Positions 6,440 to 52,380 of a DNA stretch of 64,000 bases are shown here, one piece after another. This DNA comes from a virus (lineage: Duplodnaviria > Heunggongvirae > Uroviricota > Caudoviricetes), in IMG/VR virus record IMGVR_UViG_3300028797_000096, positions 77,860 through 141,859 of that record; one strand, written 5' to 3'. The translations under genes and the position numbers were made by a program. Positions within the stretch are counted from its first letter, which is position 1. Each line of letters opens with the position of its first letter. Under the pieces are notes generated by a model. The model saw only the letters and a program-made list of their open reading frames with translations, was not told where the DNA came from and searched no databases.

Positions 6440-6494
6440 GTAAATAATCTAGGGAAGTCATTAAGATTTCCCTAGTAAAATCAAGGAGTTAGTT

Positions 6495-6902: not shown

Positions 6903-6903
6903 G

Positions 6904-8301
6904 ATGGCTACTATAGATGTTAATAAGATCGTAGAAAATGCTATGATTAATTTAAGTCTAGACTTTCCAATCTATACGAATTTAATTACACGCATTGGTT
7001 ATCGAGTGACTCATGAAGGTACTAAAAGAGCAATAGCCTATACAAATGGAACTAGTATTACTATTAATGCTGATGAAGTAGAACGTTGGAACTTAGATCC
7101 AATGGTCGAATTCGAAGGTAAAATGGTTAACAGAACCATTACACAGAAAGAAATGCAGTTCTTGTTATGTCATGAATTATTGCATTTACTTGGGTTAACA
7201 CATGAGCGTATGAAGAATGTAAAACTTTATGTTGCAGATATAGCAGCTAATGATGAAGTCTTACGTAAATTTGAGATCTGGAATCAAGCAACAGATTATG
7301 AAATCAATAGTTTGTTGTGGAATAATGAAACTACAGATCCTGAATTTGGTGATAAGAAAAGACATCCTGTTGGTAATATGCCAGCAGTTGGTTGCTATAA
7401 AGATGAATATAAAGATATGACAGCAGAAGAAATTTACGCTAAATTAATCGAAAAAGAAAAGCGTGAAAATAATGGTATGCTGTTAAAACCTCAGAATCCA
7501 ATGGTAATACCAGGCGATGGTGATGATGATGACGAAAGTGATAACGGTAAATCCTTAGCAGTAAAAGGTATTGGTGGAACAGCATTAGATATGCACATGC
7601 CAATAGAAAGTGAAGATGCTAAGAATGAAATGTTATCTAAAATGTCAGAAGTATTTGGTAGTAAGGGTAATGGATTAGGTGAATCTGCGATTGATCGTAT
7701 GGTTAATAGAGTATATAAACCAGTACCATTCAATTGGAGAAAAGCATTAACTAAATACATTAGATCTTATATCAAATCAAATTATACTTGGAACAAACCA
7801 AGTAGAGCAGGTATTGCGAATAATTTGATCTTACCAAGTGCTGGTACTACACCAAGTCTGCACGTAGGTGTTGCAATTGATACTTCTGGATCTATTAGTG
7901 ATAAAGAAATCAATGCAATGATGGATCATGTCTTTACTATCTTACAGCAATTCAAGTCCTTCGAAGTTGATTTGTGGGCTTGCGGTAGTAAAGTATATGA
8001 AGAGTCACTTATCAAAATCACTAACCAGAATAAAAAGGATTTGGAGAAATTCAATCCAATATCTGATGGTGGTAATGATATGAGAAAGAACTTTAAGTTT
8101 GTCAGAGATCATTATAAAGGTAAAGATAAAATTGATCTATTGATAATCTTAAGTGACTTCATTGATCCTCTAGATGGTGATGACGAAACAACAAGTATTT
8201 GTCCTTGTGTATTCTTGTGTATCGATCATAAAGACTTTAAGAAACCATCCAAGATCAAGGGTGAAGTGTATCCGTTTTCAGTAGAAAATTGGAAAGACTA
8301 A
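6904..8301 (+). CDS. VWA-domain protein with N-terminal HExxH (DUF2201-like)
   Basis: MIDAS motif VGVAIDTSGSIS (DxSxS); N-terminal LLCHELLHLLG HExxH motif; architecture typical of VWA partners of MoxR ATPases. Confidence 0.7.
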   Translation: MATIDVNKIVENAMINLSLDFPIYTNLITRIGYRVTHEGTKRAIAYTNGTSITINADEVERWNLDPMVEFEGKMVNRTITQKEMQFLLCHELLHLLGLTHERMKNVKLYVADIAANDEVLRKFEIWNQATDYEINSLLWNNETTDPEFGDKKRHPVGNMPAVGCYKDEYKDMTAEEIYAKLIEKEKRENNGMLLKPQNPMVIPGDGDDDDESDNGKSLAVKGIGGTALDMHMPIESEDAKNEMLSKMSEVFGSKGNGLGESAIDRMVNRVYKPVPFNWRKALTKYIRSYIKSNYTWNKPSRAGIANNLILPSAGTTPSLHVGVAIDTSGSISDKEINAMMDHVFTILQQFKSFEVDLWACGSKVYEESLIKITNQNKKDLEKFNPISDGGNDMRKNFKFVRDHYKGKDKIDLLIILSDFIDPLDGDDETTSICPCVFLCIDHKDFKKPSKIKGEVYPFSVENWKD

Positions 8302-8355
8302 GTAAGACAAGGGGTTATGTAAAAATAACCCCTTCGTTAATTGAAGGAGAACCAG

Positions 8356-8739
8356 ATGACTAACAAGCAGATATTAAAGAAATTAGAATCTACCGAAGGA
8401 AGAGAAAATGCTAAAGCAGTAAAAGAACTCTTACCACAGTGGAACTTAAAAGAATCCTTTCCAGATGATCATAATAGCATGATGCGTTATATAAGAATGC
8501 ATCAATGGGATTATGAAGACTTTGGATTTGGTATGGAAATGATATTAACAAGAGTGTTTCAAAGATATATCTTGCGTTCATATTTTGATATGAAAGAATT
8601 TAGAAGTAATCATAGAAACGTCCTAACCTCTACTTGTATTGCATTAAGTAAGATGGAAGGATTGCTTATGAATACTCAAGATGAAAAAGCATATTGTTTG
8701 TATCATTATTCGTTAAATAAGTATTACGGACATAATTAA
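8356..8739 (+). CDS. hypothetical protein
   Basis: ORF track start 8341 is a TTG inside the SD (ttgaaggagaaccagATG); ATG at 8356 preferred. Confidence 0.5.
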   Translation: MTNKQILKKLESTEGRENAKAVKELLPQWNLKESFPDDHNSMMRYIRMHQWDYEDFGFGMEMILTRVFQRYILRSYFDMKEFRSNHRNVLTSTCIALSKMEGLLMNTQDEKAYCLYHYSLNKYYGHN

Positions 8740-8750
8740 AGGAGTATAAA

Positions 8751-9497
8751 ATGAAAATTACTCGTATTAATATGAAAGGCTATATAGATCATATAGATTA
8801 TGCTGATCTTACTAAAGGAGTTTTTACAGCAAAAAAGACTCGTGTATCAGATATATATGGTTCTTATAAAGCAGATGAATGTAATGAAGTAGAAATAGAT
8901 AGTAAAGATGTAAAAGATTTGGCAAAAAAATATAGTCATGTTATTAGTGTTAGTGATATAGTAGATTACTTGCAAAAGAAAAAGTTATTACCAGCAGGTA
9001 GAGTATTTATACCAAATAACGAATGGAAGTATGACTTTATTAATGATAAAGGTGTATATAATATCTATTATGATGATACAATTCCATCTAGTAAAAAAAG
9101 ACAATCAACTGGTGTTTTACATATCTTTCACTATAAAGACTTTGTTAAATTACCTGCAACTAAGAAAGAACAAGATATGCTAGATCATTTAGCAAATCGC
9201 GCAAGAATGAAATCTTTGAATAATTTAGTATTAAAAGATAATTTCTTGAAGATACTGAATGATAATAAGTATAACGTAGAATTATATAAAGATGGTGAAA
9301 CAGTATACTTTAAGAATAAAGCAGGATGGAATAGATTAGTTCATGATGCTATTACTTACTACTTAAACAATACAATCTTAAAAGAAATAAAATGTGAAAT
9401 TGTCATGCCATTATATACTAGTAGTCATGCATGTAAATGGAGTGATTCATTCTGTAATATAGGCGATTTAAAGATGATTGTAGGTGATAAAAAGTAA
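8751..9497 (+). CDS. paralog family A protein
   Basis: 248 aa; shares a TKKEQ...L.K.N and C-terminal A(I/L).YYLN motif with the 13367 and 14293 proteins. Confidence 0.6.
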   Translation: MKITRINMKGYIDHIDYADLTKGVFTAKKTRVSDIYGSYKADECNEVEIDSKDVKDLAKKYSHVISVSDIVDYLQKKKLLPAGRVFIPNNEWKYDFINDKGVYNIYYDDTIPSSKKRQSTGVLHIFHYKDFVKLPATKKEQDMLDHLANRARMKSLNNLVLKDNFLKILNDNKYNVELYKDGETVYFKNKAGWNRLVHDAITYYLNNTILKEIKCEIVMPLYTSSHACKWSDSFCNIGDLKMIVGDKK

Positions 9498-25001: not shown

Positions 25002-26195
25002 ATGGATGAGCAATTAAAAAAAGCTGTTACACAATTATTAAAAAAAGATTTTTCTCTTGATTGGATTTGTAATTCTTTAAATTTAAAAAGAGAAGATGTA
25101 TTAAAAGCTTTTTCTAATGATAAAAAAGGCAAACCTAGTGTAATCACGAAAGAACTTAAACAATTAAAAACTTTAAATAGATTACAAATAAAAGAAACTA
25201 AAGCTAAATTTAAACAAGCCATTATTAATAGAGTTATAGAAACATATAAAAATTATCCAGAGTTATCAGTTAAAGAAAAAGCTATTAAAGCGGGTATAGA
25301 ATTTTCACGCTTTACTAATATTTCACATAAATTAGGTTTAAAACAACCTCAATATATACCACCTTTAGAAAAAAGAAAACAAAAACAGGCAATTAGAGAT
25401 ATGTATAGTAAAGGTATTTATACATATCAAGCTGTTGCAGATAAATTTGGAATTACAAGAGAACGAGTTCGTCAAATTGTTTCAGATATTTATACAGAGT
25501 TTAAAGCTCAAGGCAAAACACATAAAATTGTTAAAAAAGTATTGTGTGGTAAAAATTCACCTTCATATAAAAAAAGTTTAGAAAATTATAATGATATGAT
25601 TAATGTGTTTAAAATTGCAAAAATACATTATAATAAAAGTATATTAAATTTAAATGAAATAACCATTGCTTACCATAATTTGTATGGTAAAAAAAAGAAA
25701 ATTAAACCTAGTCATTTGATTTGGGCAAGTTTGTATAAATATATAAATAATAATGAATTAAAAGAAAATGGTGTAGAAATTAAAAGAATAGATAAAAATA
25801 AATATACTTTATTAATAGACAAACCTTTAAATAAAGAGGAAATTCCAATGATAGAAAATTTGTTTACAGTAAGTGAAAGTGAAGCAAAAAAATTAAAATT
25901 GTCTTCTTATACTATAAATATATATAGAAGTATGGAATTTTTGCGTGTGTTTTGGATTGCTTTAAAAGATTATAATAAAGATAAATTAACATTAAATGAA
26001 TTAACTACTGCTTATTATAATTTATATGGAGCTAAAAATTCAGCTAAAGTATTAACCAGAAAACAAATTAGTACAAAATTACATAATATTCGGCATAGAG
26101 AAAATTGTAGTTATATAGAAAATGTCAAAAATGCCAAAGGATTATATAGATTAACCGAAGCAGGTAAAGATTATGCTGCTAAAATGTTTAAGTAA
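25002..26195 (+). CDS. sigma-70 region-4-like HTH protein with internal tandem repeat
   Basis: KQAIRDMYSKGIYTYQAVADKFGITRERVRQIVSD closely resembles sigma70 region 4.2 (VTRERIRQIEAKAL); internal repeat LNEITIAYHNLYGKKKK / LNELTTAYYNLYGAKNS; GCTTTAC promoter upstream. Confidence 0.55.
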   Translation: MDEQLKKAVTQLLKKDFSLDWICNSLNLKREDVLKAFSNDKKGKPSVITKELKQLKTLNRLQIKETKAKFKQAIINRVIETYKNYPELSVKEKAIKAGIEFSRFTNISHKLGLKQPQYIPPLEKRKQKQAIRDMYSKGIYTYQAVADKFGITRERVRQIVSDIYTEFKAQGKTHKIVKKVLCGKNSPSYKKSLENYNDMINVFKIAKIHYNKSILNLNEITIAYHNLYGKKKKIKPSHLIWASLYKYINNNELKENGVEIKRIDKNKYTLLIDKPLNKEEIPMIENLFTVSESEAKKLKLSSYTINIYRSMEFLRVFWIALKDYNKDKLTLNELTTAYYNLYGAKNSAKVLTRKQISTKLHNIRHRENCSYIENVKNAKGLYRLTEAGKDYAAKMFK

Positions 26196-30604: not shown

Positions 30605-30799
30605 ATGGGCTTTATATTTAGAAAAAGTTTAAATTTAGGCTTGTTTCGTGTTAATTTAAGTAAACATGGATTTGGTTTTAGTTTTGGTATGCCTGGTTTT
30701 AGAAAAACATATGGTAGTAATGGTATAAATCGTACTACTTATAATATTCCAGGTACAGGAATATCTTATGTTAAAACAAGTAAAAGGAAAAGTAAATGA
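30605..30799 (+). CDS. DUF4236-like small protein
   Basis: MGFIFRKSLNLGLFRVNLSKHGFGFSFGMPGFRKT matches the DUF4236 pattern. Confidence 0.5.
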   Translation: MGFIFRKSLNLGLFRVNLSKHGFGFSFGMPGFRKTYGSNGINRTTYNIPGTGISYVKTSKRKSK

Positions 30800-31026
30800 A
30801 AACTAGGACAAAATTAAATGTAGCAGAATATCTTGAAAAAAATTTAAAAGATGATCCAGCTAAGGAATTAATATTAGAGTATATAAGTTATTTAGAAAAA
30901 AGAGCTGAATCTTTAGATAAAATTAGAGCTTCCGGTAGAAAATATATAGATAAAAATAAAGAAAAAAAAGCAGAATATAATCGTATGCGCTATTTAAAAA
31001 GAAAAGAGGCAAAAAATGAAAAATAA
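30796..31026 (+). CDS. hypothetical protein
   Basis: 76 aa, basic. Confidence 0.45.
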   Translation: MKTRTKLNVAEYLEKNLKDDPAKELILEYISYLEKRAESLDKIRASGRKYIDKNKEKKAEYNRMRYLKRKEAKNEK

Positions 31027-31366
31027 AAAAATTGATAAATTATTTGTACAATGTGATTGTGGATCTGAATATATAGTTTTAGAACCACAAGATATAGATT
31101 GCTTAGAATGTGGTTTGTATATGGGTGTTTTAGCAAATGCTTATCATAAACCTTCATTTTGGCATAGATTTAGACATATTTGGTATACATTGAAACATGG
31201 TAAACCTTATACAGATCAGGTATGTTTAGATTTAGACAAAGTTAAAAAATTAGAAATGTATTTGAAAAGTTATATTGCTATGGCCGAATTAGATAAAAAG
31301 TATAGAAATAAAAAAGATAATAAATCTAATATGATTTTAATTTATCCTACTAAAAAAGGAAAATAA
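31016..31366 (+). CDS. zinc-ribbon protein
   Basis: CDCGSEY...CLECG cysteine pairs. Confidence 0.45.
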   Translation: MKNKKIDKLFVQCDCGSEYIVLEPQDIDCLECGLYMGVLANAYHKPSFWHRFRHIWYTLKHGKPYTDQVCLDLDKVKKLEMYLKSYIAMAELDKKYRNKKDNKSNMILIYPTKKGK

Positions 31367-31367
31367 C

Positions 31368-31562
31368 ATGTTAGAATTTTTTAAAATCTTAGGTCTAACT
31401 ATATTGGGTATTATTGCTTTTGTTATAATTGCGTTTTTCGGCATATGGTTATTACTTTGGATATGGCCAATTATAATTATAGCTTTACCTATTGCTTTAG
31501 TTATTTATTTAATCCAATTATATAAAATAGCTAAGCCAACAAAGAAAAATAGAAAGAAATAA
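31368..31562 (+). CDS. small hydrophobic membrane protein
   Basis: 64 aa, two TM segments, basic C-terminus (holin-like topology, unproven). Confidence 0.45.
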   Translation: MLEFFKILGLTILGIIAFVIIAFFGIWLLLWIWPIIIIALPIALVIYLIQLYKIAKPTKKNRKK

Positions 31563-31576
31563 AAAAGGAGTAAACA

Positions 31577-32431
31577 ATGAAATGGAAAAAGTTTTATTTT
31601 GTACCAAATAATGGTTATAATATGGATAATGAAAATGTTACAGATTTTATATTATCTGCTTTATTTACCGGTGCATTGTGGATTTTGTGTTTAATTCTTA
31701 TTTTTGGATCTTGGTTTACTGTAGCTGAAGGTGAAAGAGCCATCTTAACTACTTTTGGTAAAGCTTCGAATCATATATATGAAGCAGGTTTACATATCAA
31801 GTGTCCAATTATTCAAGATGTAAAAACTTTTGATATTAAAACGATTCGTGCTGATTATAAAACACAAACTTATACAAAAGATATTCAAACAGCAAATATT
31901 ACTGTGTCATATTCATATAATTTGATTAGTAATGATATTATTGAAACATATAAAACATACGGTAATCAATGGCAAGAACGTATTTTATATCCTAACTTAG
32001 AACAAGCCGTTAAAGCTGAAGTGGGTACATGGAATGCAGATCAAATGGTTGCTAATCGTGATAAAGTAGCAGATAATATTTTAAAATCACTACAATCTCG
32101 TATGATTGAACATAAATATCCTGTTACTATTACAAATTTTCAAATGATTAATATTGATTATTCTGATCAATTTGAAAAATCTATTGAAAAGAAAGTAGTT
32201 GCAGAACAAGAAGCTTTAGAAGAAGAAAATCGTACTAAACAAGTTGAACAAAAAGCTAAACAGCAAGTTATTAGTGCAAAAAGTGAAGCTGAATCTATGC
32301 GTATTCGTGCAAATGCTTTAGCAAATAATCCAAAATTAGTTAATTATGAATTTGTTCAAAAATGGGATGGTAAATTGCCACAAATTATGACTGGTGATTC
32401 TATGCCAATTTTAATGAATTTAAATAAATAA
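31577..32431 (+). CDS. SPFH/band-7 (prohibitin-like) domain membrane protein
   Basis: N-terminal TM then ERAILTTFGKASNHIYEAGLHIKCPIIQDVKTFDIKTI typical of SPFH domains; coiled-coil C-terminal region. Confidence 0.6.
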   Translation: MKWKKFYFVPNNGYNMDNENVTDFILSALFTGALWILCLILIFGSWFTVAEGERAILTTFGKASNHIYEAGLHIKCPIIQDVKTFDIKTIRADYKTQTYTKDIQTANITVSYSYNLISNDIIETYKTYGNQWQERILYPNLEQAVKAEVGTWNADQMVANRDKVADNILKSLQSRMIEHKYPVTITNFQMINIDYSDQFEKSIEKKVVAEQEALEEENRTKQVEQKAKQQVISAKSEAESMRIRANALANNPKLVNYEFVQKWDGKLPQIMTGDSMPILMNLNK

Positions 32432-32456
32432 TTATTAAGGAAAAAAAGGCGAAGTT

Positions 32457-33710
32457 ATGTTATTTAAAACATTTGATAATGGATTAGTTTTATTATATGA
32501 AAAAAATAAAGTTAATAATAAAGATGCTTTTCATGTAAATGTTTTAACAGGTAGTGCTTTAGAAGAATCAAATGAAAAAGGAATTAATCATTTGGTTGAG
32601 CATTTAATGTTCAAAGCAAGTCATAAAAGAACGACTAAACAAATATCTGAAGAATTAGAACAACAAGGTGCTATTGTTAATGCATGGACTAATTATGATA
32701 ATGTTCGTTTTCATTTTGAATGTTTACCAGAAAAACTTGAAAAATGTGCTGAAATATATGCAGATATGTTGTTAAATAAAAATATTAGTAAAGAAGAATT
32801 TGAAAAAGAAAAGTCTATTGTATGCCAAGAAATTGCTATGTATGAAGATAATTTTGAAGCAACAAATGAAACAAATTATTTTCATGAATTTTTAAGTATG
32901 GAAGATGTGGCTGGCTCTATTAAAAGTGTTAAAAAAATTACATTAAAACAAGTAAACGATTTTATTTATAATACATATATACCAAGAAATATGGTAATTT
33001 CTGTATGTTCACATTTATCATTTCGTAAGATTTGTAAAATTGTTGAAAAATATTTTGGTATAAAACATTGTTATCTTTCTACACAAAAAGATATGCGTAA
33101 GATATGGAGTGAAAAAGCGGCTACTGCTTTTAATTTAGATATAAAGAAAAAATCTCCATATAAACAAAAGAAAAATACTGCACAAGTACAAGTATTACAT
33201 GCATATTATTTAAAAGATATTATGACTACACCAAGAATGTTAACTATATTAGAGGTTGCTTTATCAGGTGGATTATCTGCGCCTTTAATTAAAGAGATTC
33301 GTGAAAAATATGGTATTTGTTATAGTATTTATGCAGATGGGGTTGTTTTATATCCAAATCAGTTTAATAATAAATTACCACAAATTATATTAATTAAATC
33401 AAGTACAGAAAAGAAACATTTAAAACAATATTTAGCTGCAGTAGATGAAGTAGTTAAGAATTTACCAAAGCTTATATCAGATATTGATATTGAGCGTAGT
33501 GTAAATACTCTTCGTACTGCTGGGTTAAAAGCAACTGATATTGCAAGTACAAATTTCTTTTGGTATTTAAATCCAAAAACTTATCTTTGTAATATTTCAG
33601 CTGCAAAAGAAAGTGAACTAATTAACAAATGTGCAAATGATATTATAAGAAGTTTAGCTCAACGATTATCAGTTGCAGATTGTGATATTAGTATTTTAGG
33701 TAATATTTAA
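32457..33710 (+). CDS. M16 (pitrilysin/insulinase) family zinc peptidase
   Basis: inverted zinc motif GINHLVEHLMFK (HxxEH) about 45 residues from N-terminus; 417 aa. Confidence 0.65.
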   Translation: MLFKTFDNGLVLLYEKNKVNNKDAFHVNVLTGSALEESNEKGINHLVEHLMFKASHKRTTKQISEELEQQGAIVNAWTNYDNVRFHFECLPEKLEKCAEIYADMLLNKNISKEEFEKEKSIVCQEIAMYEDNFEATNETNYFHEFLSMEDVAGSIKSVKKITLKQVNDFIYNTYIPRNMVISVCSHLSFRKICKIVEKYFGIKHCYLSTQKDMRKIWSEKAATAFNLDIKKKSPYKQKKNTAQVQVLHAYYLKDIMTTPRMLTILEVALSGGLSAPLIKEIREKYGICYSIYADGVVLYPNQFNNKLPQIILIKSSTEKKHLKQYLAAVDEVVKNLPKLISDIDIERSVNTLRTAGLKATDIASTNFFWYLNPKTYLCNISAAKESELINKCANDIIRSLAQRLSVADCDISILGNI

Positions 33711-33724
33711 TTAAGGAGTAAACT

Positions 33725-34033
33725 ATGAAAAAACTTATTATTACCTCAATTATCGCTTTAACAACAACTTGTGGCTTTGCTTCAGATTATTATATTCCAC
33801 AAGAAACTACATCTGAAGTATTTACTCGTCAACAAGTACAAGTAACTAATGATTGTTATGGTTCAGTATGTAATAAACGTGTAGCTATGCCTTCATATAA
33901 AATGGCTCCAGTTACAGTTCATACTGGTCGTACAGTTACAGTTAAAGATCATTACGATGTGTATCAACCACGAGTAGTTTATGACAAAGTAGATAGTTAT
34001 ACAACTACTAAAACATGTACATATTGTGATTAA
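33725..34033 (+). CDS. lipoprotein
   Basis: signal peptide with lipobox TTCGFAS. Confidence 0.5.
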   Translation: MKKLIITSIIALTTTCGFASDYYIPQETTSEVFTRQQVQVTNDCYGSVCNKRVAMPSYKMAPVTVHTGRTVTVKDHYDVYQPRVVYDKVDSYTTTKTCTYCD

Positions 34034-34101
34034 TCAGAAAGGGATAAATGTTAATAGGTATTTATCCCTTTTTCCAAATATAAAAGTAAAGGAGGATATT
34101 A

Positions 34102-34470
34102 ATGTATATAAGTTTAAAACAAAATAAAAATTTATTATGTGAAGTTGGTATATATACAATAAAAGCAGATAATATAATAGCAAAGCCTTGGTCAGTATCT
34201 ATACATTCATATATTAATATAGAAAATTATTCAAATGCTTTATTAAAAATTTCAGAAGAACTTCAGCAAGATTTCATAAAAGATTTTAAAATGATCCAAG
34301 GTTTTAGGCAAGATTATTTTGAACAAATATCTAAAGAGTTTCCTGTTCCAAATTGCTATGATTTAAGTGATGAAAATTTAACTAAAGATGAATTTAAGAT
34401 TATTTGTATAATTAGAGAAAAAATACAAAAATTAGCAGATAAATGGAATATGGAATATAATGAAGATTAA
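34102..34470 (+). CDS. hypothetical protein
   Basis: 122 aa, SD aaggagg. Confidence 0.5.
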   Translation: MYISLKQNKNLLCEVGIYTIKADNIIAKPWSVSIHSYINIENYSNALLKISEELQQDFIKDFKMIQGFRQDYFEQISKEFPVPNCYDLSDENLTKDEFKIICIIREKIQKLADKWNMEYNED

Positions 34471-34482
34471 AGGAGTTAAAAT

Positions 34483-35052
34483 ATGACTAAAACATATAAA
34501 AAAATAGAAGTTGAAGAAATCAAAACATATAAATGTTCTGATGGTAAAATTTTTAATACTAAAGAAGCAGCTGAAAAGCATGAAAAAATTTTAGCAAATC
34601 CAGATTGTAGAATTGAAATGTTAGAAGAAAGAATTCAAGATTTGGAGATATTGGTTGATTCATTGCGAAATAAAGTATTAGCTTTAGAATTTCATAGACT
34701 TAATCCAGCAAAACCTCATCCAGATATTGTAGGTCCACAATGGCCACCATATCCTTATAATGAACCGTTGCGTTTTGATGAAGAAGCTAAAAAAGTTAAA
34801 TTACCAGCAGAACCCGGTAATGTAGTATATGATTCAGTAGAATTATCTAAATTATCAGATGAAGAATTAATAAAAAGAGGATATAATGTAACTTATGCGG
34901 GTCATAACAGATCGATTATTCCACGTGTAGATTTAAGTACTGTTTGTGGTAATGTAACTACTCCACCTGAATATATTGGTAATCCTTTGGATAATCAAGA
35001 TTGTGGTTCAAATTGTGGTAGTAATTCAGGTATATATGGGAATAATAAATGA
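34483..35052 (+). CDS. hypothetical protein
   Basis: 189 aa, followed by terminator and promoter. Confidence 0.5.
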   Translation: MTKTYKKIEVEEIKTYKCSDGKIFNTKEAAEKHEKILANPDCRIEMLEERIQDLEILVDSLRNKVLALEFHRLNPAKPHPDIVGPQWPPYPYNEPLRFDEEAKKVKLPAEPGNVVYDSVELSKLSDEELIKRGYNVTYAGHNRSIIPRVDLSTVCGNVTTPPEYIGNPLDNQDCGSNCGSNSGIYGNNK

Positions 35053-35096: not shown

Positions 35097-35156
35097 ATAT
35101 AATGTATTAAAAAACTTCATGTTTTTATACATTTTTTAAACTCTGAATACACTCTA

Positions 35157-35192
35157 AATCACCAGATTTTATATTTGGTGATTTTTTGTTTT
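35157..35192 (+). terminator. rho-independent terminator
   Basis: AAATCACCA-gattttatattt-GGTGATTT then TTTTGTTTT; upstream of the Pnkp gene. Confidence 0.65.
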
Positions 35193-35239
35193 ACAATTAT
35201 TATAAAAAATTATATAATATAAATATAAAGAGGTAATAA

Positions 35240-37441
35240 ATGAAGATCTTGTTAGTTTTAAGAGGTATTCCAGGTTCTGGTAAATCTACTTGGATTAAAG
35301 AAAGAGATTTAGAAGCATACGTTTTAAGTACCGATGCTATTCGTTTATTATACTCTTCTCCAGAACAAACTATAAAAGGTAAATATATTGTTTCTAATAA
35401 ACATGATAAACATGTTTGGGCTTTCTTTAAAGAAAGATTAGAAGATCGTATGAAGAATGGTGATTTTACTATATTAGATGCTACACATACCAAAGAATCT
35501 TATTTAAAAGATTATAAAAAATTGTGTAAAGAATATAATTATCGTATGATTATTGTAGATTTTTCTTCTGTTGATTTAGATACTTGTAAAGAAAGAAATT
35601 TAATGCGGGAAAGTTATAAACAAGTACCAAATGAAGTATTAGATCGTATGTATAATCAAATAAAAGTACCATTACAAAATAAATATGAAATTTATGATTA
35701 TAATGAATTTCCTAATTTAGATAATTTTGTATATAAAATAGATGGTAATAAATGGAAAGAAGTAGTAATATTTGGTGATATACATAATTGTTATGATCCA
35801 ATAAGAAAATACTTTGAAGCATCTCCAGAATCTGATCAAAAATTATACATCTTTATTGGTGATTATTTTGATCGTGGTATTCAAGCTAAAGAAGTATTAC
35901 AGTTTTGTTTAGACCACTGTGAAAAAGAAAACTTTGTATTTTTACAAGGTAATCATGAAATATGGGCTAAGAATTATGTAAGAGATGGTGAAGCTGCTAA
36001 AATGACACCAGATTTCAAAGATTCTTTAGTACAGTTTGGTGAATTAAAAGATCAATTAAGTAAGTTTACTAGAAGATTAAAAGTAGCAGTAAATGTTAGT
36101 TTTTACTGTCAGGGTATTTATCATAGATTTTCTATTACTCATGGTGGATTAAGCTTTCCTTTAGATTATCGTACTTCTGCAATACAATGTATTAAAGGAG
36201 TAGGTGATTATGATGATTTAGATGAAGTAGAAAAAGCTTTTGGTAGTATTAATGAAAAAATGACTATGCAAGTATTAAACTACAAATGCTATAATGTACA
36301 TGGTCATCGTAATGTAACTAATAATCCAATTATAAGTGCAGACGGCTATAGTATTAACTTAGAAGGTAAAGTTGAATTTGGTGGTAATTTAAGAATAGTT
36401 GAATTATCTTATACAGACAAAATGAATATATTACCAATAGAAATACCAAATACAATTTATAACAAAGATATACAAATTCCTTCTAGTAGACATGATAATC
36501 CAATTATTCAACAATTGGATAGTAGTAGTTTAATACATAAAAAAGATTTGGGTGATGGTATAGTTTCTTATAACTTTAGTAGAGAAGCTTTTTATAGCCA
36601 AAAATGGAATAAATTAACTACTACAGCGAGAGGCTTATTTGTTGATACTAAGACAAATCAAGTAGTTGCTAGATCTTATCCTAAATTTTTTGAAGCAGAA
36701 CAGCATCCATCTACACAATGGAGAAATTTAGAAAAGACATTAGTATTTCCAGTAACTGCTTATTTGAAAGAAAATGGCTTTTTAGGTATTGTATCTGTAT
36801 ATAATGATCAATTATTTATTGCATCTAAATCTACAAATCAAGGCGAATATAAAGAAAACTTTGAGCGTATATTAAAAACACATACAAATATTGATAAATT
36901 AAAAGAATATTTAAAAGCTAATAATTGTTCCGCTATATTTGAATGTGTAGATCCACATAATGATCCGCATATTATTGAATATGTCAATGAAAAAGTTGTA
37001 TTATTAGATATAGTACAGAATGATTTTACAGATACATTTAAATCTTATGATGATGTATGGGAATTAGCTAAACAAATAGGATGTAAACCAAAAGAAATGT
37101 GTAAAGTATTTAATACCTTTGCTGAATTAAAATCTTTTATTGAAGCATTTGATAAAGATTTTCATGAAGAAATAGAAGGTTTTGTATTTGTAGATCAGAA
37201 TAATTTTATGATTAAATATAAAACACCTTTCTATAAATTCTGGAAAGACATGCGTAGAATGAAAGAATATATTAATAAAGGTGATAATGATAAATATTTT
37301 GCCGCTAAAAATGTAAAGTCTGAACAAACAAATTTGATGAATGATTTGTTTAGTTTTATGACAGGTATTAAAAATGGTGGTATTGATTTAGATACATTAT
37401 CCATTATTGATATTAAAAACAGTTATTATAATAAGGATTAA
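35240..37441 (+). CDS. Pnkp-like polynucleotide kinase / calcineurin-type phosphoesterase with C-terminal ligase-like domain
   Basis: P-loop LRGIPGSGKST; metallophosphoesterase motifs GDIHN, GDYFDRG, GNHE; C-terminal third has ligase-like elements (ARGLFVD, EGFVFV, KYKTPFYK) reminiscent of bacterial Pnkp RNA-repair enzymes. Confidence 0.65.
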   Translation: MKILLVLRGIPGSGKSTWIKERDLEAYVLSTDAIRLLYSSPEQTIKGKYIVSNKHDKHVWAFFKERLEDRMKNGDFTILDATHTKESYLKDYKKLCKEYNYRMIIVDFSSVDLDTCKERNLMRESYKQVPNEVLDRMYNQIKVPLQNKYEIYDYNEFPNLDNFVYKIDGNKWKEVVIFGDIHNCYDPIRKYFEASPESDQKLYIFIGDYFDRGIQAKEVLQFCLDHCEKENFVFLQGNHEIWAKNYVRDGEAAKMTPDFKDSLVQFGELKDQLSKFTRRLKVAVNVSFYCQGIYHRFSITHGGLSFPLDYRTSAIQCIKGVGDYDDLDEVEKAFGSINEKMTMQVLNYKCYNVHGHRNVTNNPIISADGYSINLEGKVEFGGNLRIVELSYTDKMNILPIEIPNTIYNKDIQIPSSRHDNPIIQQLDSSSLIHKKDLGDGIVSYNFSREAFYSQKWNKLTTTARGLFVDTKTNQVVARSYPKFFEAEQHPSTQWRNLEKTLVFPVTAYLKENGFLGIVSVYNDQLFIASKSTNQGEYKENFERILKTHTNIDKLKEYLKANNCSAIFECVDPHNDPHIIEYVNEKVVLLDIVQNDFTDTFKSYDDVWELAKQIGCKPKEMCKVFNTFAELKSFIEAFDKDFHEEIEGFVFVDQNNFMIKYKTPFYKFWKDMRRMKEYINKGDNDKYFAAKNVKSEQTNLMNDLFSFMTGIKNGGIDLDTLSIIDIKNSYYNKD

Positions 37442-38221: not shown

Positions 38222-38245
38222 ATGAATAAACAAAAAGGAGTAAAA

Positions 38246-38806
38246 ATGTTTCACAAAATAGCACAAATTTGTCAAACTATTTTAATTGCATTTATATTTG
38301 TTTATACTATATTATTAATTTGGTCTCCAGATGTATTTGCTGATACTATAAAGGGTAAAGCAAAAGTTATTGATGGTGATACTATAGAAATACAAGGCGA
38401 AAAAATTCGTTTACAATGTATTGATACTCCAGAAAGTTCATATCGTGGTAAAATTCAATATTGTTTAGATAATGAAACAGATTGTGGATTTTATGCTAAA
38501 AAAGTATTGTTAGAAACAGTTAGAAATAAAGAAATTGTCTGTGAATATACCAAAAGAGATGTATATGGTAGAATTCTTGGTATGTGTCAAGAATATTATT
38601 GGAATATAGAATGGGATTATGAAGGTACTTTAAATTATAGAATGGTTACAGAAGGTTATGCTTGGTGGTATAATGGTGGAAAAGAATGTAAACCGTTCAA
38701 AGAAGCAATGGAAGAAGCACAGAAGTATGAAAAAGGTTTATGGTGGAGTGGTTATGGTGGATTTAAAGAGCCTAAACTTTGGAGAAAAACAAGGAGTAAT
38801 GATTAA
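38246..38806 (+). CDS. membrane-anchored staphylococcal-nuclease (SNase)-like nuclease
   Basis: N-terminal TM then KAKVIDGDTIEIQGEKIRLQCIDTPES matching SNase; ATG 38246 with SD aaaaggag preferred. Confidence 0.6.
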   Translation: MFHKIAQICQTILIAFIFVYTILLIWSPDVFADTIKGKAKVIDGDTIEIQGEKIRLQCIDTPESSYRGKIQYCLDNETDCGFYAKKVLLETVRNKEIVCEYTKRDVYGRILGMCQEYYWNIEWDYEGTLNYRMVTEGYAWWYNGGKECKPFKEAMEEAQKYEKGLWWSGYGGFKEPKLWRKTRSND

Positions 38807-41436: not shown

Positions 41437-42051
41437 ATGAAAAATAAAACAATATTATGGTTATTATTAATTTTTTGGGCAGCGATATTTTTTGTTGCAG
41501 GAATTATAAATGCTAAAGCAGAAAATTGGGTTACTTCACCAAGTAAAATGTATATGCCAGGAAATATTTATAATACAGCAATTATAAATAGTACAAATAC
41601 TGTAAATACTACTTCTAATAATAAATTTGATAGTTGTAAAAATCCAGGTACAGTAAGAAAAATTATAGTAGATAAATCTGATAAAACTTTACAGCTTTTA
41701 GATGTTAATGGATGTATAGTTAAACAATATGATAATATTCGTTTAGGTAAAAATGAAGGACCAAAGCATTGTGAAGGTGATTCTAAAACACCAGAAGGTA
41801 TTTATCATATTATAGAAAAAAGAAATTCTAAGTATGTTAAATTTTTAGCCTTGGATTATCCACAAGCTAAAGATATTAAAAAAGCAAAAGAATTAGGATG
41901 TAAACCAGGTGATTCGATTGGTATTCATAGTTGGATTGAAGGTTTACCAAAAGAAGGTTCACAAGGTTGTATTACTGTATGGACTAAAAAAGATATTCTT
42001 GAAATTAATGATTTAGTTAGTGTAGGTACTGAAGTAGAAATTAGGAAATAA
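41437..42051 (+). CDS. secreted L,D-transpeptidase (YkuD)-like protein
   Basis: signal/TM N-terminus; GDSIGIHSWIEGLPKEGSQGCITVW resembles the YkuD His..Ser.Gly-Cys catalytic region. Confidence 0.45.
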   Translation: MKNKTILWLLLIFWAAIFFVAGIINAKAENWVTSPSKMYMPGNIYNTAIINSTNTVNTTSNNKFDSCKNPGTVRKIIVDKSDKTLQLLDVNGCIVKQYDNIRLGKNEGPKHCEGDSKTPEGIYHIIEKRNSKYVKFLALDYPQAKDIKKAKELGCKPGDSIGIHSWIEGLPKEGSQGCITVWTKKDILEINDLVSVGTEVEIRK

Positions 42052-47594: not shown

Positions 47595-47669
47595 TGGCGT
47601 GTAGCTCAACGGCAGAGCTTTCGGCTGTTAACCGAATGGTTGTCCGTTCGAATCGGACCACGCCAGCCA
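47595..47669 (+). tRNA. tRNA-Asn(GUU)
   Basis: TGGCGTG/CACGCCA acceptor, anticodon loop CTGTTAA, GTCCG-TTCGAAT-CGGAC T-arm, encoded CCA. Confidence 0.85.
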
Positions 47670-47676
47670 TGTTTCT

Positions 47677-47751
47677 GGCCCCATCGTCTAATGGTTAGGA
47701 CACCGCCCTTTCAAGGCGAGAATCCCGGTTCAAATCCGAGTGGGGCTGCCA
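47677..47751 (+). tRNA. tRNA-Glu(UUC)
   Basis: GGCCCCA acceptor, anticodon loop CTTTCAA, GGTTCAAATCC T-loop, CCA. Confidence 0.75.
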
Positions 47752-47757
47752 ATTTAT

Positions 47758-47831
47758 TGGAGCATAGTTTAATGGTAGAACCCGGGATTTTGGTTCCCGT
47801 TATCTTGGTCCGAATCCAGGTGCTCCAACCA
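47758..47831 (+). tRNA. tRNA-Gln(UUG)
   Basis: TGGAGCA/TGCTCCA acceptor, anticodon stem CGGGA/TCCCG, loop TTTTGGT, CCA. Confidence 0.8.
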
Positions 47832-48024
47832 TTAAGTTTTACAGAAGTGTCTACTATTAGTTACGTATGAGGCTATAAAGGTAGGAATACGTATCAAAGA
47901 CAGCCTACTAATAAGCACGAAATAATTTTGGTAAGACTTATTAGAGGAAAGTTTTTCTTTTAGCATTGGCTAGAAGTATTACCTGAAAGTTAATATGAAA
48001 AAGTTATTAGCTTTCTTGGTCTAT

Positions 48025-48101
48025 GCTTGTTTAGCTCAGTTGGCTAGAGCATCTGCTTTACACGCAGAGGGTCAGGAGTTCGAGTCTCTTAACAAGCACC
48101 A
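48025..48101 (+). tRNA. tRNA-Val(UAC)
   Basis: GCTTGTT/AACAAGC acceptor, anticodon loop TTTACAC, GGAGTTCGAGTCTC T-arm, CCA. Confidence 0.85.
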
Positions 48102-48124
48102 AAAAATTTAAAAAAAGGAAATTA

Positions 48125-48616
48125 ATGAAAGCAATTTGTCCAAAATGTGGAATAGAATTTGAAAATGATACAAATCGAAAATTTTGTTCAAGAAAATGTG
48201 TAAATAGTCGTAATATTTCACAAGAAACAAAAAAGAAAATTTCAAATAAAATGAAAGCCAGATATCAAGAACCTGAATACAGAAAACAAATTTTGAATTT
48301 AAATAGAAAATTAGGTAATCATTTACATGAAGAAAAATTAAAAAGATTTGTAAAAGCAAAAAATGGGCAAATTTTAGATATTACATATGGGGAATTAGAA
48401 GAATACCAAAAAACTCATTTGGTATGTGAAATTTGTGGTAAAACTGAAATTGCTTCACATAACATAATAAAAAAGATATATCGAAATTATGTCGTGATCA
48501 TGATCATAAAACTTCTAAATTTCGTGGATTATTATGTAGTAATTGTAACAGAAAGTTAGGTTGGTTTGAAAATTTTAAAGATGAAATTTTCAAATATTTG
48601 AATAAAAAGCACCAGT
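48125..48616 (+). pseudogene. NUMOD3 + Endonuclease-VII/HNH-type homing endonuclease with frameshift
   Basis: N-terminal NUMOD3-like SQETKKKISNKMK; frame 2 reads ...LVCEICGKTEIASHNIIKK then must shift to frame 1 (DISKLCRDHDHKTSKFRGLLCSNCNRKLGWF) at the A6 run 48468-48473 to restore the CxxC...DHDH...RGLLC..CN motif. Confidence 0.6.
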
Positions 48617-48682
48617 AGTTTAATAGTAGAATGTAACCTTGCCAAGGTTAAGACCTCGGAGCATAACCGGGTTGGTGCACCA
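48609..48682 (+). tRNA. tRNA-Gly(GCC)-like, atypical arms
   Basis: GCACCAG/TTGGTGC acceptor, perfect anticodon stem TAACC/GGTTA with loop TTGCCAA, CCA; D-arm weak and T-loop AGCATAA non-canonical; overlaps the stop of the HNH pseudogene. Confidence 0.45.
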
Positions 48683-48684
48683 AT

Positions 48685-48774
48685 GGACAGATGGTAGAGT
48701 GGCTGAATACACTGGTCTTGAAAACCGGCATACCAGCAATGGTATCGGGGGTTCGAATCCCTCTCTGTCCGCCA
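48685..48774 (+). tRNA. tRNA-Ser(UGA)
   Basis: GGACAGA/TCTGTCC acceptor, loop CTTGAAA, long variable arm, GGGGTTCGAATCCC T-arm, CCA. Confidence 0.85.
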
Positions 48775-48782
48775 TTTTTTAA

Positions 48783-48872
48783 AGGAGTGGTGGTAGAGCG
48801 GTTTAATACAGCTGATTACTAATCAGCCGAAGCAGTAATGTTTCCGGGGGTTCAAATCCCTCCCACTCCGCC
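48783..48872 (+). tRNA. class II tRNA (Ser-like) with anticodon loop TTACTAA (anticodon ACU?)
   Basis: GGAGTGG/CCACTCC acceptor, GAGCGGTTTAA D-loop as in tRNA-Ser, perfect anticodon stem GCTGA/TCAGC, long variable arm, GGGGTTCAAATCCC, CCA; A at position 34 is unusual. Confidence 0.6.
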
Positions 48873-48888
48873 ATTACTTTATTAATTT

Positions 48889-48923
48889 TGGCCCTGTGGC
48901 GGAATTGGTAGACGCTGCAGACT
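48889..48923 (+). tRNA. tRNA-Leu(UAA) exon 1 (intron-interrupted)
   Basis: GGCCCTG acceptor, GGCGGAATTGGTAGACGC D-arm, GCAGA anticodon stem, loop CUU| ; intron inserted after U34 as in cyanobacterial/plastid tRNA-Leu(UAA). Confidence 0.65.
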
Positions 48924-49628
48924 TAGACGAAAATGAGTGTATCATAATTTATTGAAAAAGTAGTTCTATATCATAAGGAGTTAATCCTATGAAAAATAGA
49001 ATTACAGATCAAGAAATGATTGATATTATCATTAAGTCTCAAACAATGGCTTTAGCTGCTAAAAGATGTGGTATGGCATATACAACATTTATTAGGCATG
49101 CTAAAAGATTGGGTATTTATAAACCTAATCAAGGCGGAAAAGGTACTGAGAAAAAAAGATCTGCTAAAATATCTATAGAAGAAATTTTAGCAGGAAAGTA
49201 TCCTCAGTATCAAACATATAAATTAAAAACAAGATTAATAGATGAAGGATATAAAGAAGATAAGTGTGAGAAATGTGGGTGGTGTGAAAAATTAAAAAAT
49301 AGCAAATATACTCCATGCGAATTACATCATATCGATGGAAATCCTGAAAATCATTTATTATCTAATTTAATTATATTGTGTCCAAATTGCCATTCCTTAA
49401 CTAAATCTTATAGGTTTAGAAGAGGTAAGACTAATGAGCAACAAGGTAGGAAACTTCTCGATTGAATGCTGTCAAATTCGGTGAAAGGTTTTATAATCCT
49501 AACGCCGAGCGAAGCCTAGAAATAGGAACGTGTAGAGACTTAACGGCAGCCACCTAAGTAGAAATATATGGTGAAGACAAAGTCCAGACTACAAACAAGA
49601 AATTGGTAGTGAAAGCTATAGTAGTAAG
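48924..49628 (+). ncRNA. group I intron (Azoarcus / cyanobacterial tRNA-Leu type) carrying an HNH ORF
   Basis: 705 nt; guide GAGT pairs with exon end ACUU (U-G at splice site); core blocks TGTCAAATTCGGTGAAA and GTGTAGAGACTTAACGGCAGCCACCTAAG match the Azoarcus pre-tRNA-Ile intron recalled from memory; terminal G at 49628. Confidence 0.65.
48989..49465 (+). CDS. intron-encoded HNH homing endonuclease
   Basis: CEKCGWCEKL...CELHHIDGNPENHLLSNLIILCPNCH (HNH with two Cys pairs); lies wholly inside the tRNA-Leu group I intron; SD aaggag. Confidence 0.7.
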   Translation: MKNRITDQEMIDIIIKSQTMALAAKRCGMAYTTFIRHAKRLGIYKPNQGGKGTEKKRSAKISIEEILAGKYPQYQTYKLKTRLIDEGYKEDKCEKCGWCEKLKNSKYTPCELHHIDGNPENHLLSNLIILCPNCHSLTKSYRFRRGKTNEQQGRKLLD

Positions 49629-49682
49629 AAAATCTGTTGACAGTTAAATGTCGTACCGGTTCGATTCCGGTCAGGGCCACCA
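49629..49682 (+). tRNA. tRNA-Leu(UAA) exon 2
   Basis: AAAA-TCTGT, variable arm TGACAGTTAAATGTCGT, ACCGG-TTCGATT-CCGGT, CAGGGCC-A-CCA pairing exactly with exon 1 acceptor. Confidence 0.65.
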
Positions 49683-49694
49683 AAAAATTTATAT

Positions 49695-49770
49695 GGGGTT
49701 GTAGCTCAGTTGGTAGAGCATCTGCTTTGCAAGCAGAGAGTCGTCAGTTCGAGTCTGATCAGCTCCACCA
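49695..49770 (+). tRNA. tRNA-Ala(UGC)
   Basis: G3-U70 wobble identity pair, anticodon loop TTTGCAA, CCA. Confidence 0.8.
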
Positions 49771-49771
49771 T

Positions 49772-49848
49772 AGGAAGGTAGTTCAGATGGTTAGAATGTC
49801 GCTCTGATACAGCGAAGGTCGTGAGTTCGAATCTCACTCTTCCTACCA
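49772..49848 (+). tRNA. tRNA-Ile(GAU)
   Basis: AGGAAGG acceptor, anticodon loop CTGATAC, GTGAGTTCGAATCTCAC, CCA. Confidence 0.8.
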
Positions 49849-49856
49849 TAGTTTAT

Positions 49857-49932
49857 GCCTGCTTAGTTCAGTTGGTAGAACGACTGATTTGTAATCAGTA
49901 AGTCGGCGGTTCAAGTCCGTCAGCAGGCACCA
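49857..49932 (+). tRNA. tRNA-Thr(UGU)
   Basis: GCCTGCT/AGCAGGC acceptor, anticodon loop TTTGTAA, CCA. Confidence 0.8.
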
Positions 49933-50321
49933 GAGATTAGTAGGTAATCGTAGTATAGAGATAAAAGCCTTGAATCGTATATCCAATATATTTGAATGGA
50001 CGCCGTAGTCAGTAAAGGGACCTACTAAGTAAGAGATTTTGATAATAAAAAATAGGTTGAGCACATAGTGTTAACTCCAGGTTAGTCATGACTGCTGAGC
50101 ACAGACCGATCATGAAGTAACATACTTGAAACGATAGAGTAGGGTTACAGTTATCAAAATAGTGTTGGGGTAGAGTCTATATAATATATTAAGCATGTTT
50201 ATGCAATCCTTGGATGTTTATATTTGATTGACTCTACAACAATTTTAACCGGATATTAGTGAATGATAATTATTTATTATGCCTAATATCTATAAGTCTA
50301 AGAAAAACATAAGGAAAAAAT

Positions 50322-50747
50322 ATGTTTATTAATACAAATGGAGGTTTGATTGATACTCCAGAACGCTTAATCAATCATTTTGCATCTCTTCCTGAATATA
50401 CTGATATTCAGAAGTCTTTAATTGAAGATCATTGTGCTTGCTGTGCTAAAAGCTTTGCTAGAGGTGTTGGTAAAGTTACAAAAGAAGAGGTATGGTTTGG
50501 TGCTTTAGATGTGTTTCCATATATATCTAATAAGCATGAATTTACCAATGAAGATTTTTTAATTAAAAGATGGGGTATTGATTGGCAAAAAGCTAGGTTA
50601 AAAGAAAGACCAGATGTAGATATTGATAAATCTACTAAAAGTCAATTAGGAAAGATTTTTTACGATGCCTTATTGAGAGATAAAAACGCTATTTATAAAT
50701 GGCGTAGAGTAGAAGGCAAATATTTTGAATATTGTCGTATAAAATAG
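50322..50747 (+). CDS. hypothetical protein
   Basis: 141-aa ORF within tRNA island; CACCAK motif. Confidence 0.5.
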   Translation: MFINTNGGLIDTPERLINHFASLPEYTDIQKSLIEDHCACCAKSFARGVGKVTKEEVWFGALDVFPYISNKHEFTNEDFLIKRWGIDWQKARLKERPDVDIDKSTKSQLGKIFYDALLRDKNAIYKWRRVEGKYFEYCRIK

Positions 50748-50835
50748 TTCAAATATAAAAGGGTGGGACAATTGCTATGATGTTTTAGTAACATTATCAA
50801 TCCCACCCAATGAGTTTAAAATAAGAGGTAAAATC

Positions 50836-51108
50836 ATGTCATTTAACCGTAAACAAACACCAATTGCAACAAACGATCATTGGAATTTATATTTATTAGG
50901 ATTTTGTAAAGAAAATGTTCGTAAAGCTGTGTTAATTAATTATCTTACTAATGATGAATTATCTGCAAAAGTTAATGTAGGTGCAGATATTACTGGTAAA
51001 AATACACAATATACTGTAATTGAAGCGGTTGATGAAAAAACAAATCATTTAGTTGATTTTACTAAAACATTTGTTGTTCCGGGTAAATATGTTAAAACTC
51101 GTGGATAA
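50836..51108 (+). CDS. hypothetical protein
   Basis: 90-aa ORF, SD aagaggtaaaatcATG. Confidence 0.5.
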   Translation: MSFNRKQTPIATNDHWNLYLLGFCKENVRKAVLINYLTNDELSAKVNVGADITGKNTQYTVIEAVDEKTNHLVDFTKTFVVPGKYVKTRG

Positions 51109-51377
51109 TAAATATTAAAAGTTTTGGTCTTATAGGTCAAAGACTAAAATGACGGGGACAGCCTGAAGATAGGAGGCTGCTGCTTGGATCGGCAATATAG
51201 GGTCTCACAAAATACATAAGATTGACCTCACAGTGTTTTCACGCTGATAATCTTATGGTGAGTGTATGCAAAACCTGATTGAGTTGGTTCAAATCCAGAC
51301 AGTTAGGTAGGCAAGGTGTTGGAGCATGAACACACTTAGATGGGTTGCTCCTTATAGTTTTATAGGAAGGATATGAT

Positions 51378-51611
51378 ATGAAAGATATATGTACTGAAAT
51401 TATAAAAGAGTTAGAAAAAATGGGATATACTGCATTTCAAATAACTCCAGAGATGTCTATTCATGAAGATTTAGGTTTAGATTCATTAGATACTATTGAA
51501 TTGGTTGCTAAATTAGAAGAAAAATTTGATATTCGTATAAAAGATGATGATTTAGTAGATGTAAAAACGATTCAAGATATTGTAGATATTGCTAATAAAT
51601 ATTTAAAATGA
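51378..51611 (+). CDS. acyl carrier protein
   Basis: 77 aa acidic; phosphopantetheine attachment motif DLGLDSLDTIELVAKLEEKFDIRI. Confidence 0.8.
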   Translation: MKDICTEIIKELEKMGYTAFQITPEMSIHEDLGLDSLDTIELVAKLEEKFDIRIKDDDLVDVKTIQDIVDIANKYLK

Positions 51612-51734
51612 GAGTTTAACCGATAAAAGAAATAGTTCTATATAATATGAAAAAAATAAATGTATGTTTTTGGCCATGCTTTCCTAGTACCTTTGGAGGT
51701 AAGTGTTAATCATACTTTTATAGAAGATTAGATA

Positions 51735-51764
51735 CCTCCAGAAATAAAAAGCTGGAGGTTTTTT
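51735..51764 (+). terminator. rho-independent terminator after the ACP gene
   Basis: CCTCCAG-aaataaaaag-CTGGAGG then TTTTTT. Confidence 0.8.
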
Positions 51765-51853
51765 AATTGAGTTTGGTAGTTGTAGTATAATCAATACACT
51801 TCCCAATGGGGTAGAAGAGATGTAAGTAAAATCTTATCGATTACCACAGTTTA

Positions 51854-51931
51854 TCGGAATGTAGGATAATCTGGTTATTCCGCCTGTTTTGGGTACAGGA
51901 GACTCCCGGTTCAAATCCGGGCATTCCGACC
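51854..51931 (+). tRNA. tRNA-Pro(UGG)
   Basis: CGGAATG/CATTCCG acceptor, anticodon loop TTTGGGT, CCCGGTTCAAATCCGGG, CCA. Confidence 0.8.
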
Positions 51932-51937
51932 AGTTTT

Positions 51938-52014
51938 TGGCTGGGTAGCTCAGTTGGTAGAGCAAGGGACTGAAAATCCCTGTGTCAGTGGTTCGATCCC
52001 GCTCTCAGCCACCA
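51938..52014 (+). tRNA. tRNA-Phe(GAA)
   Basis: GCTCAGTTGGTAGAGC D-arm, anticodon loop CTGAAAA, CCA. Confidence 0.85.
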
Positions 52015-52019
52015 ATCTT

Positions 52020-52093
52020 GGCCAGGTGGCAGAATGATTATGCAGAGGACTGCAAATCCTTGTACATCGGTTTGATTCCGGTCCTGGCCTCCA
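52020..52093 (+). tRNA. tRNA-Cys(GCA)
   Basis: GGCCAGG/CCTGGCC acceptor, anticodon loop CTGCAAA, discriminator U, CCA. Confidence 0.75.
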
Positions 52094-52098
52094 AATCT

Positions 52099-52172
52099 AG
52101 GTCATTAGTTTAGTGATAAAACAAAGATCTCCAAAATCTTAGTCGGTGGTTTGATTCCATCATGACCTGCCA
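52099..52172 (+). tRNA. tRNA-Trp(CCA)
   Basis: AGGTCAT/ATGACCT acceptor, anticodon loop CTCCAAA, CCA. Confidence 0.75.
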
Positions 52173-52303
52173 TTATTTTGGAAATTTAGTTAAAAAAAGT
52201 ATTTACAAATAAAAATAAATGTATATAATATATAATATCTACTTGCTGCCATACTAGATTTCCCAGTTACCATCGTAGTAAGTACAGCAAGTAGGTAGTT
52301 TAT

Positions 52304-52380
<77 letters not shown>

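Follow-up and report, generated by a model that had tools for sequence, protein, structure and literature searches.

Does a scaffold-protein gene that lies directly upstream of a zinc peptidase gene on a phage genome specify one membrane machine, or are the two genes independent of each other? The question is raised by a 64,000-nucleotide stretch (the window) of a Caudoviricetes genome (IMG/VR record IMGVR_UViG_3300028797_000096, positions 77,860 to 141,859). Four open reading frames (ORFs) follow one another in it on the plus strand, at 31368-31562, 31577-32431, 32457-33710 and 33725-34033. The initial annotation placed these ORFs correctly and read them as a membrane module consisting of a double-transmembrane mini-protein, an SPFH protein, an M16 peptidase and a lipoprotein, in which SPFH and M16 might be partners in the manner of HflK/C with FtsH or stomatin with NfeD. 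Both enzyme and scaffold assignments are upheld by profile searches (Pfam Peptidase_M16, Peptidase_M16_C and Band_7); the functional partnership is not supported. SPFH and M16 are probably independent accessory genes that have become neighbors through fluid gene order rather than parts of a scaffold-protease system.

The gene at 32457..33710 (plus strand) encodes an M16B zinc metallopeptidase of 417 amino acids (aa), in which Peptidase_M16 (1.2e-25) and Peptidase_M16_C (9.3e-16) both score well above the Pfam gathering scores. The inverted zinc motif HxxEH of the N-terminal domain is present as HLVEH (residues 45-49) and aligns with the HFLEH of PDB entry 3HDI and of MPP-beta. The third zinc ligand, E125, is a glutamate ~76 residues downstream, a spacing identical to that of E126 in the Bacillus halodurans enzyme BHP, the zinc site of which is HFLEH46-50...E126 (PMC12731061, table). 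In M16 enzymes the active site is completed by an arginine-tyrosine pair, a motif located in the C-terminal domain (PMC12731061, section 3.2), and R282 and Y289 of the phage protein align with the R and Y of BHP. Eight residues, H45, E48, H49, E118, E125, R282, E283 and Y289, are invariant in an alignment of 35 phage M16 proteins.

The fold agrees with the motifs. The AlphaFold model (predicted local distance difference test [pLDDT] 92.5, predicted template modeling score [pTM] 0.90) has 3hdi_A as its top PDB match in Foldseek (template modeling [TM] score 0.78), with further bacterial M16B chains and MPP-beta ranking next and the top matches falling at 0.73-0.79. The same chain, from homodimeric BHP, is the best PDB sequence match (3.5e-24). 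Poxvirus G1 metalloproteases join MPP-beta as viral and mitochondrial structural matches, and the nearest cellular relatives are from Clostridia (28-34% identity), which points to Bacillota/Clostridia as the possible host. M16B chains are ~50 kDa with two homologous alpha/beta domains, a half clam-shell, and the protein has this build. It falls in no NCBIfam equivalog; YfmH was considered and rejected, as the best NCBIfam score (YfmH_fam, 79 bits) is far below the cutoff of 250. The loci of the phage clade described below yielded no second M16 gene, a result that fits a homodimer and led to rejection of a tandem M16 heterodimer. The protein has no hydrophobic segment, signal peptide or transmembrane helix, and its N-terminus starts at the first conserved strand; it is therefore assigned to the cytoplasm. 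M16 is thus a complete, signal-less, cytoplasmic M16B enzyme with predicted peptidase activity.

The upstream gene (31577..32431, plus strand) encodes a prohibitin-like SPFH/Band 7 protein of 284 aa with a single N-terminal transmembrane helix (~residues 24-46). The Band_7 match is strong (1.2e-30, 107 bits against a gathering cutoff of 23.6) and the protein also matches phrog_200 (3e-50). Its best PDB match is prohibitin-2 (2e-20), together with prohibitin-1; HflC and HflK match more weakly. An HflK/HflC equivalog was rejected, the NCBIfam scores being 67 bits for hflC (cutoff 134) and 46 for hflK (cutoff 159). There is one SPFH gene per locus in all loci inspected, and the paired K/C arrangement was not encountered. 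The only hydrophobic segment, within residues 21-52, forms a membrane anchor. Across 106 homologs, lysine plus arginine average 3.5 in the N-flank vs 1.1 in the 15 residues after the helix; by the positive-inside rule, this asymmetry predicts an N-in orientation that would place the SPFH domain outside the cytoplasm, matching prohibitin and HflK/C. For prokaryotic prohibitins, Hinderhofer et al. suggested a periplasmic orientation and found no NfeD partner (PMC2636767). The phage SPFH domain and M16 would then probably reside on opposite sides of the membrane.

The window is of phage origin, with a major-head-like protein (phrog_138), an ATPase, an HNH endonuclease, 14 tRNA genes and a GC content of ~26-34%. 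Contigs of up to 231 kb carry proteins identical to those of the window, including an identical M16, and M16 homologs of 36-100% identity occur on 200-275 kb contigs. Samples of pig gut, water-buffalo rumen and Hadza human gut are among the sources of clade contigs. In IMG/VR, an alignment-based scan gave matches; single-protein scans with M16 and with SPFH gave none. The SPFH and M16 genes are both conserved in this uncultivated clade of ~200-275 kb gut and rumen phages, of which no deposited phage is a close relative at the DNA level (no megablast match of the region to deposited phages). One water-buffalo rumen sequence (L113, JAFZWP010000001.1, 245,208 bp) is deposited as "MAG: Bacilli bacterium RGIG8164"; it is evidently a phage genome of the clade, so that the public label is misleading.

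Gene order across the clade mostly separates the two genes. Of 14 lineages sampled, the window phage included, three have SPFH immediately upstream of M16: the window phage itself, L193 (M16 58% and SPFH 89% identical to those of the window) and L007 (55% and 82%). The two proteins have diverged unequally between the same pairs of phages, SPFH to 82-89% identity vs 55-58% for M16. SPFH is not adjacent in L012 (M16 87%), where a 92-aa membrane protein gene lies upstream of M16; in L110/L113 (73%), where none is found within 10 kb of M16; in L111 (67%), where the RNA-ligase gene Pnkp, described below, is upstream; or in L194 (53%), which has M16-YkuD and o116, the latter a small-protein gene described below, with other small ORFs in the gap. 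At M16 identities of 47% or less, SPFH is not adjacent in seven of seven lineages (L008, L013, L014, L018, L019, L016 and L010). The view from the SPFH side is similar. In L102 (SPFH 87%) and L104 (79%) the order is o116-(tm64)-SPFH and then directly Pnkp, tm64 being the mini-protein gene of the window; in L108 it is SNase-SPFH-o122, and in L105 YkuD-127 aa-SPFH-dCMP deaminase. The M16 cluster P0005 and the SPFH cluster P0081 have the same longest contig of 245,244 bp; both genes therefore appear to be retained in that genome, at separate places more than 10 kb apart. Given the patchy distribution, the adjacency would be either ancestral in the subclade with at least 53% M16 identity and broken at least three times, or the product of repeated assembly. 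With either history, the persistence of both genes when separated argues against obligatory coupling in cis.

Beyond the clade the pairing is not seen. A single-sequence tblastn search for SPFH within ~10 kb of M16 at 161 distant, mostly bacterial loci (2.24 Mb in total) gave 0/161, and the same query readily found phage SPFH proteins at 27-32% identity. No SPFH gene is annotated within 5 kb of the M16 genes of Bacillus phage G and MaAM05; a third contig inspected is unannotated. The initial annotation was right to call the pairing unusual. The frequencies of the two genes in phages also differ. Relatives of the SPFH protein are present in 465 phage records, so a phage SPFH gene is common, and homologs 70-97% identical were found on more than 100 clusters. 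M16B is uncommon: among 50,697 deposited phage records, 9 have one. It belongs to no PHROGs family, and a BFVD structure search gave 17 matches. Literature searches turned up nothing published on M16 peptidases of phages or on SPFH-M16 pairing, and two papers on jumbo phages, gastrointestinal and multi-habitat, mention neither. The two proteins are new members of known families, and a phage M16B, though uncommon, is not surprising in kind.

Several points weigh against independence of the two genes. The adjacency recurs in three lineages that span 55-100% M16 identity; this recurrence, with a gap in the window of 25 nt on the same strand and no terminator between the genes, means that the adjacency may be ancestral to the subclade and that co-transcription is likely. 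Even where separated, SPFH and M16 are always in the same loose neighborhood, and an interaction in trans is possible. The 14 lineages are represented by metagenomic contigs and are partly non-independent. The predicted SPFH topology derives solely from the positive-inside rule and homology. Finally, we are not aware of a substrate for a prokaryotic M16B of the kind described here.

The preferred explanation, independent accessory genes, would work as follows. Gene order is fluid within a neighborhood of 10-15 kb that also holds o116, YkuD, SNase, sp102, o122, o189 and Pnkp, and SPFH and M16 would come together or apart as it changes. M16 would be a cytoplasmic "peptidasome", by analogy with BHP a homodimeric clam-shell, each chain of which would supply an HxxEH...E zinc site together with an R/Y pair. 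Enzymes of the BHP class enclose and cleave short unfolded peptides (PMC12731061), and the phage enzyme would likely clear or recycle peptides inside infected cells. SPFH, with a predicted N-in anchor in its one N-terminal helix, may assemble as a ring or cage at the outer surface of the host membrane, as prohibitin and HflK/C suggest, and would organize or shield membrane proteins. Its partners would probably be its more constant companions, o116 and tm64, rather than M16. In this picture the domain identities, the conservation of catalytic residues, the fold, the lack of export signals on M16 and the synteny pattern are direct results, and the oligomeric states, the topology, the substrates and the physiological roles are inferred.

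The o116 gene (31016..31366, plus strand) encodes a 116-aa cytoplasmic protein with cysteines in a CxC...CxxC arrangement; Pfam, PHROG and NCBIfam gave no match for it. In L102, L104, L193 and L007 a homolog immediately precedes SPFH, so that no other upstream neighbor of the SPFH gene is as constant as o116, which is also a more constant neighbor than M16. The mini-protein tm64 (31368..31562, plus strand; 64 aa) was rightly described as having two transmembrane segments. By hydropathy and charge it is a two-helix membrane hairpin: residues 1-56 are hydrophobic with a central WIWP, and a strongly basic C-terminal tail carries seven K/R (+7). It is holin-like in shape, but searches of Pfam, PHROG and NCBIfam gave no family for it, and its surroundings showed no identifiable endolysin. 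Its homolog (69% identity) was found in L102 only, the closest relative.

The fourth ORF of the block, sp102 (33725..34033, plus strand; 102 aa), is not the lipoprotein it had been taken for. The TTTC sequence does not fit the lipobox [LVI][ASTVI][GAS]C; Cys16 is unconserved in a 23-member family alignment (A2), being missing from most homologs, most of which read PVFASD, and F18, A19, S20 and D21 are invariant. The invariant FA|SD predicts signal peptidase (SPase) I cleavage after Ala19, hence a secreted protein, and sp102 would be a small Sec-exported protein. The family is specific to the clade (65 homologs, none with a Pfam domain; no PHROGs family) and has a conserved C-terminal HYDVYQP...SYTTTxTCxYC motif that includes a CxxC. 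The AlphaFold model (pLDDT 47.6) is too poor for use.

M16 is more often near YkuD and SNase than near SPFH. YkuD, an L,D-transpeptidase (41437-42051), and SNase, a staphylococcal-type nuclease (38222-38806), both carry N-terminal signal or transmembrane sequences. They occur in most sampled lineages and are the most constant neighbors of M16: YkuD is within ~2.5 kb of it in eight lineages, SNase is adjacent in five, and sp102 is within ~2.5 kb in four. The same neighborhood holds two unannotated genes, o122 and o189 (34102..35052, plus strand), homologs of which accompany M16 and sp102 in L008, L113 and L194, while in L108 they are found close to SPFH. Pnkp, a trifunctional kinase-phosphatase-RNA ligase (35240-37441; phrog_8238, 6e-175), follows in the window; in L104, from pig gut, an ORF that faintly matches LAGLIDADG interrupts the Pnkp gene (5951-9204).

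The genes of the block are separated by 1-25 nt, each with an AGGAG-like site. A candidate terminator follows sp102 (34036..34073, plus strand), a 15-bp hairpin and then U residues, with an RNA fold of -15.8 kcal/mol (z = -3.8; none of 200 shuffles folds as well). Ahead of Pnkp, on the plus strand, a consensus scan places a second terminator-like hairpin (35156-35184) and then a promoter-like site (35190-35218; TTTACA-17-TATAAT, matching at 11 of 12 positions). Co-transcription of o116 through sp102 is plausible, a feature generic to tightly packed phage genes.

Other features of the window and the clade stand apart from these genes. A 14-tRNA array (47595-52380) includes a tRNA-Ser with an unusual ACT anticodon (48784-48873) that adjoins a normal tRNA-Ser(TGA). 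A 397-aa protein (25002-26195) with a Sigma70 region 4 match (2e-6) is possibly a phage sigma-like factor, and a 64-aa DUF4236 protein (30605-30799; 8e-16) has matches to several far longer PHROG families that are confined to their N-terminal portions. PADLOC found no defense-system match among seven proteins. The clade relatives L007, L010, L105 and L110 have a broad metabolic and proteostasis repertoire, comprising carbamoyl-phosphate synthase, ornithine carbamoyltransferase, peptide deformylase, ClpB-like, DnaJ-like, YqeY, dCMP deaminase and ferredoxin genes.

Three rival explanations were weighed, none of which is directly supported. The one that survives best, though unlikely, is that M16 processes proteins of the phage, acting in virion or precursor maturation in a manner analogous to the poxvirus G1 type or the mitochondrial processing peptidase. 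Its structural matches to G1 and MPP-beta would suit such a role, as would the position of the Bacillus phage G M16 (gp2), which adjoins the large terminase gene. However, a T4-type prohead protease (Peptidase_S77) is already present in L010, a member of the clade, the window M16 is ~14 kb from the major head gene amid non-structural accessory genes, and its closest structural relative is of the closed-chamber BHP type, grouped with the peptide-degrading "peptidasomes" (PMC12731061).

A quite unlikely extension of the peptidasome idea is that the enzyme is kept throughout the clade for a dedicated task, directed at the signal peptides of exported neighbors or at host peptide signals or toxins, and that SPFH might cooperate with it at the membrane in the subclade where the two are adjacent. 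Service to the exported neighbors as such, in which M16 would break down the signal peptides cleaved from them or carry out the maturation of a small peptide, is improbable. The comparators are PreP, which degrades presequences, and AlbE/F and PqqF, which mature small peptides. The linkage of M16 to sp102, YkuD and SNase, all of which have N-terminal signal sequences, speaks for it, but neither strict adjacency nor a fixed order is seen, and the linkage may reflect nothing beyond a shared expression region. There is also no RiPP-type maturase among the Pfam-scanned neighbors, and we know of no experimental precedent for a bacterial M16B that clears signal peptides.

The proposal that an SPFH cage recruits or regulates M16, thereby remodeling proteostasis or processing envelope proteins, can draw on the close same-strand spacing and its recurrence in L193 and L007 and on the association of SPFH proteins with proteases in cells, but it has little probability given the adjacency in 3 of 14 lineages, the opposite predicted compartments, the 0/161 distant loci, and the identity of the known SPFH partner proteases, which are the membrane-anchored FtsH or NfeD and not M16, prokaryotic prohibitin-type SPFH proteins being without an operonic protease partner (PMC2636767). 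An SPFH-protease operon would have a conserved membrane-protease partner; here the peptidase has no transmembrane segment, and Pfam gave no NfeD match among the neighbors.

Independence of SPFH and M16 thus remains the preferred reading, and it has consequences for how such loci are interpreted. An apparent scaffold-protease operon turns out to be a lineage-specific adjacency, which guards against over-interpretation. An intact M16B, absent from PHROGs, is documented as a conserved gene of a clade of ~230-kb gut and rumen phages that also carry secreted L,D-transpeptidase and nuclease genes; the phage-borne secreted L,D-transpeptidase may merit separate study. Given that bacterial M16B enzymes of this type lack a known substrate, a phage that needs one could be a tractable route to substrates.

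Each of the two proteins has recognizable counterparts. We are aware of no phage SPFH protein whose function is established. The SPFH protein resembles prohibitin and the SPFH4 group (Hinderhofer et al. 2009) in its Band_7 domain, its single N-terminal transmembrane helix and its C-terminal helices, which align with PHB2 to residue 258, and like SPFH4 proteins it has no NfeD partner. Unlike HflK/HflC, it is below the NCBIfam cutoffs and is encoded by a single gene instead of a K/C pair. It shares with other phage SPFH proteins (PHROG 200; Kayvirus MbpS) a small charged-tail membrane protein encoded just upstream; in Kayvirus, MbpS adjoins the holin-like MbpV (PMC7150955), whereas no endolysin was identified near the pair here. 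M16 has the same fold as Bacillus phage G gp2, the giant-virus M16 proteins and poxvirus G1, all from large-genome viruses, but its identity to them is 25% or less, their genomic contexts are different, and the giant-virus forms are single chains of ~900 aa. Its closest counterpart is BHP (BH2405, a YmxG-type M16B, PDB 3HDI). The phage enzyme differs in being phage-encoded, ~22% identical and a homodimer by prediction only, and is alike in length (417 vs 413 aa), in zinc-site spacing and in carrying both HxxEH and the R/Y pair in one chain.

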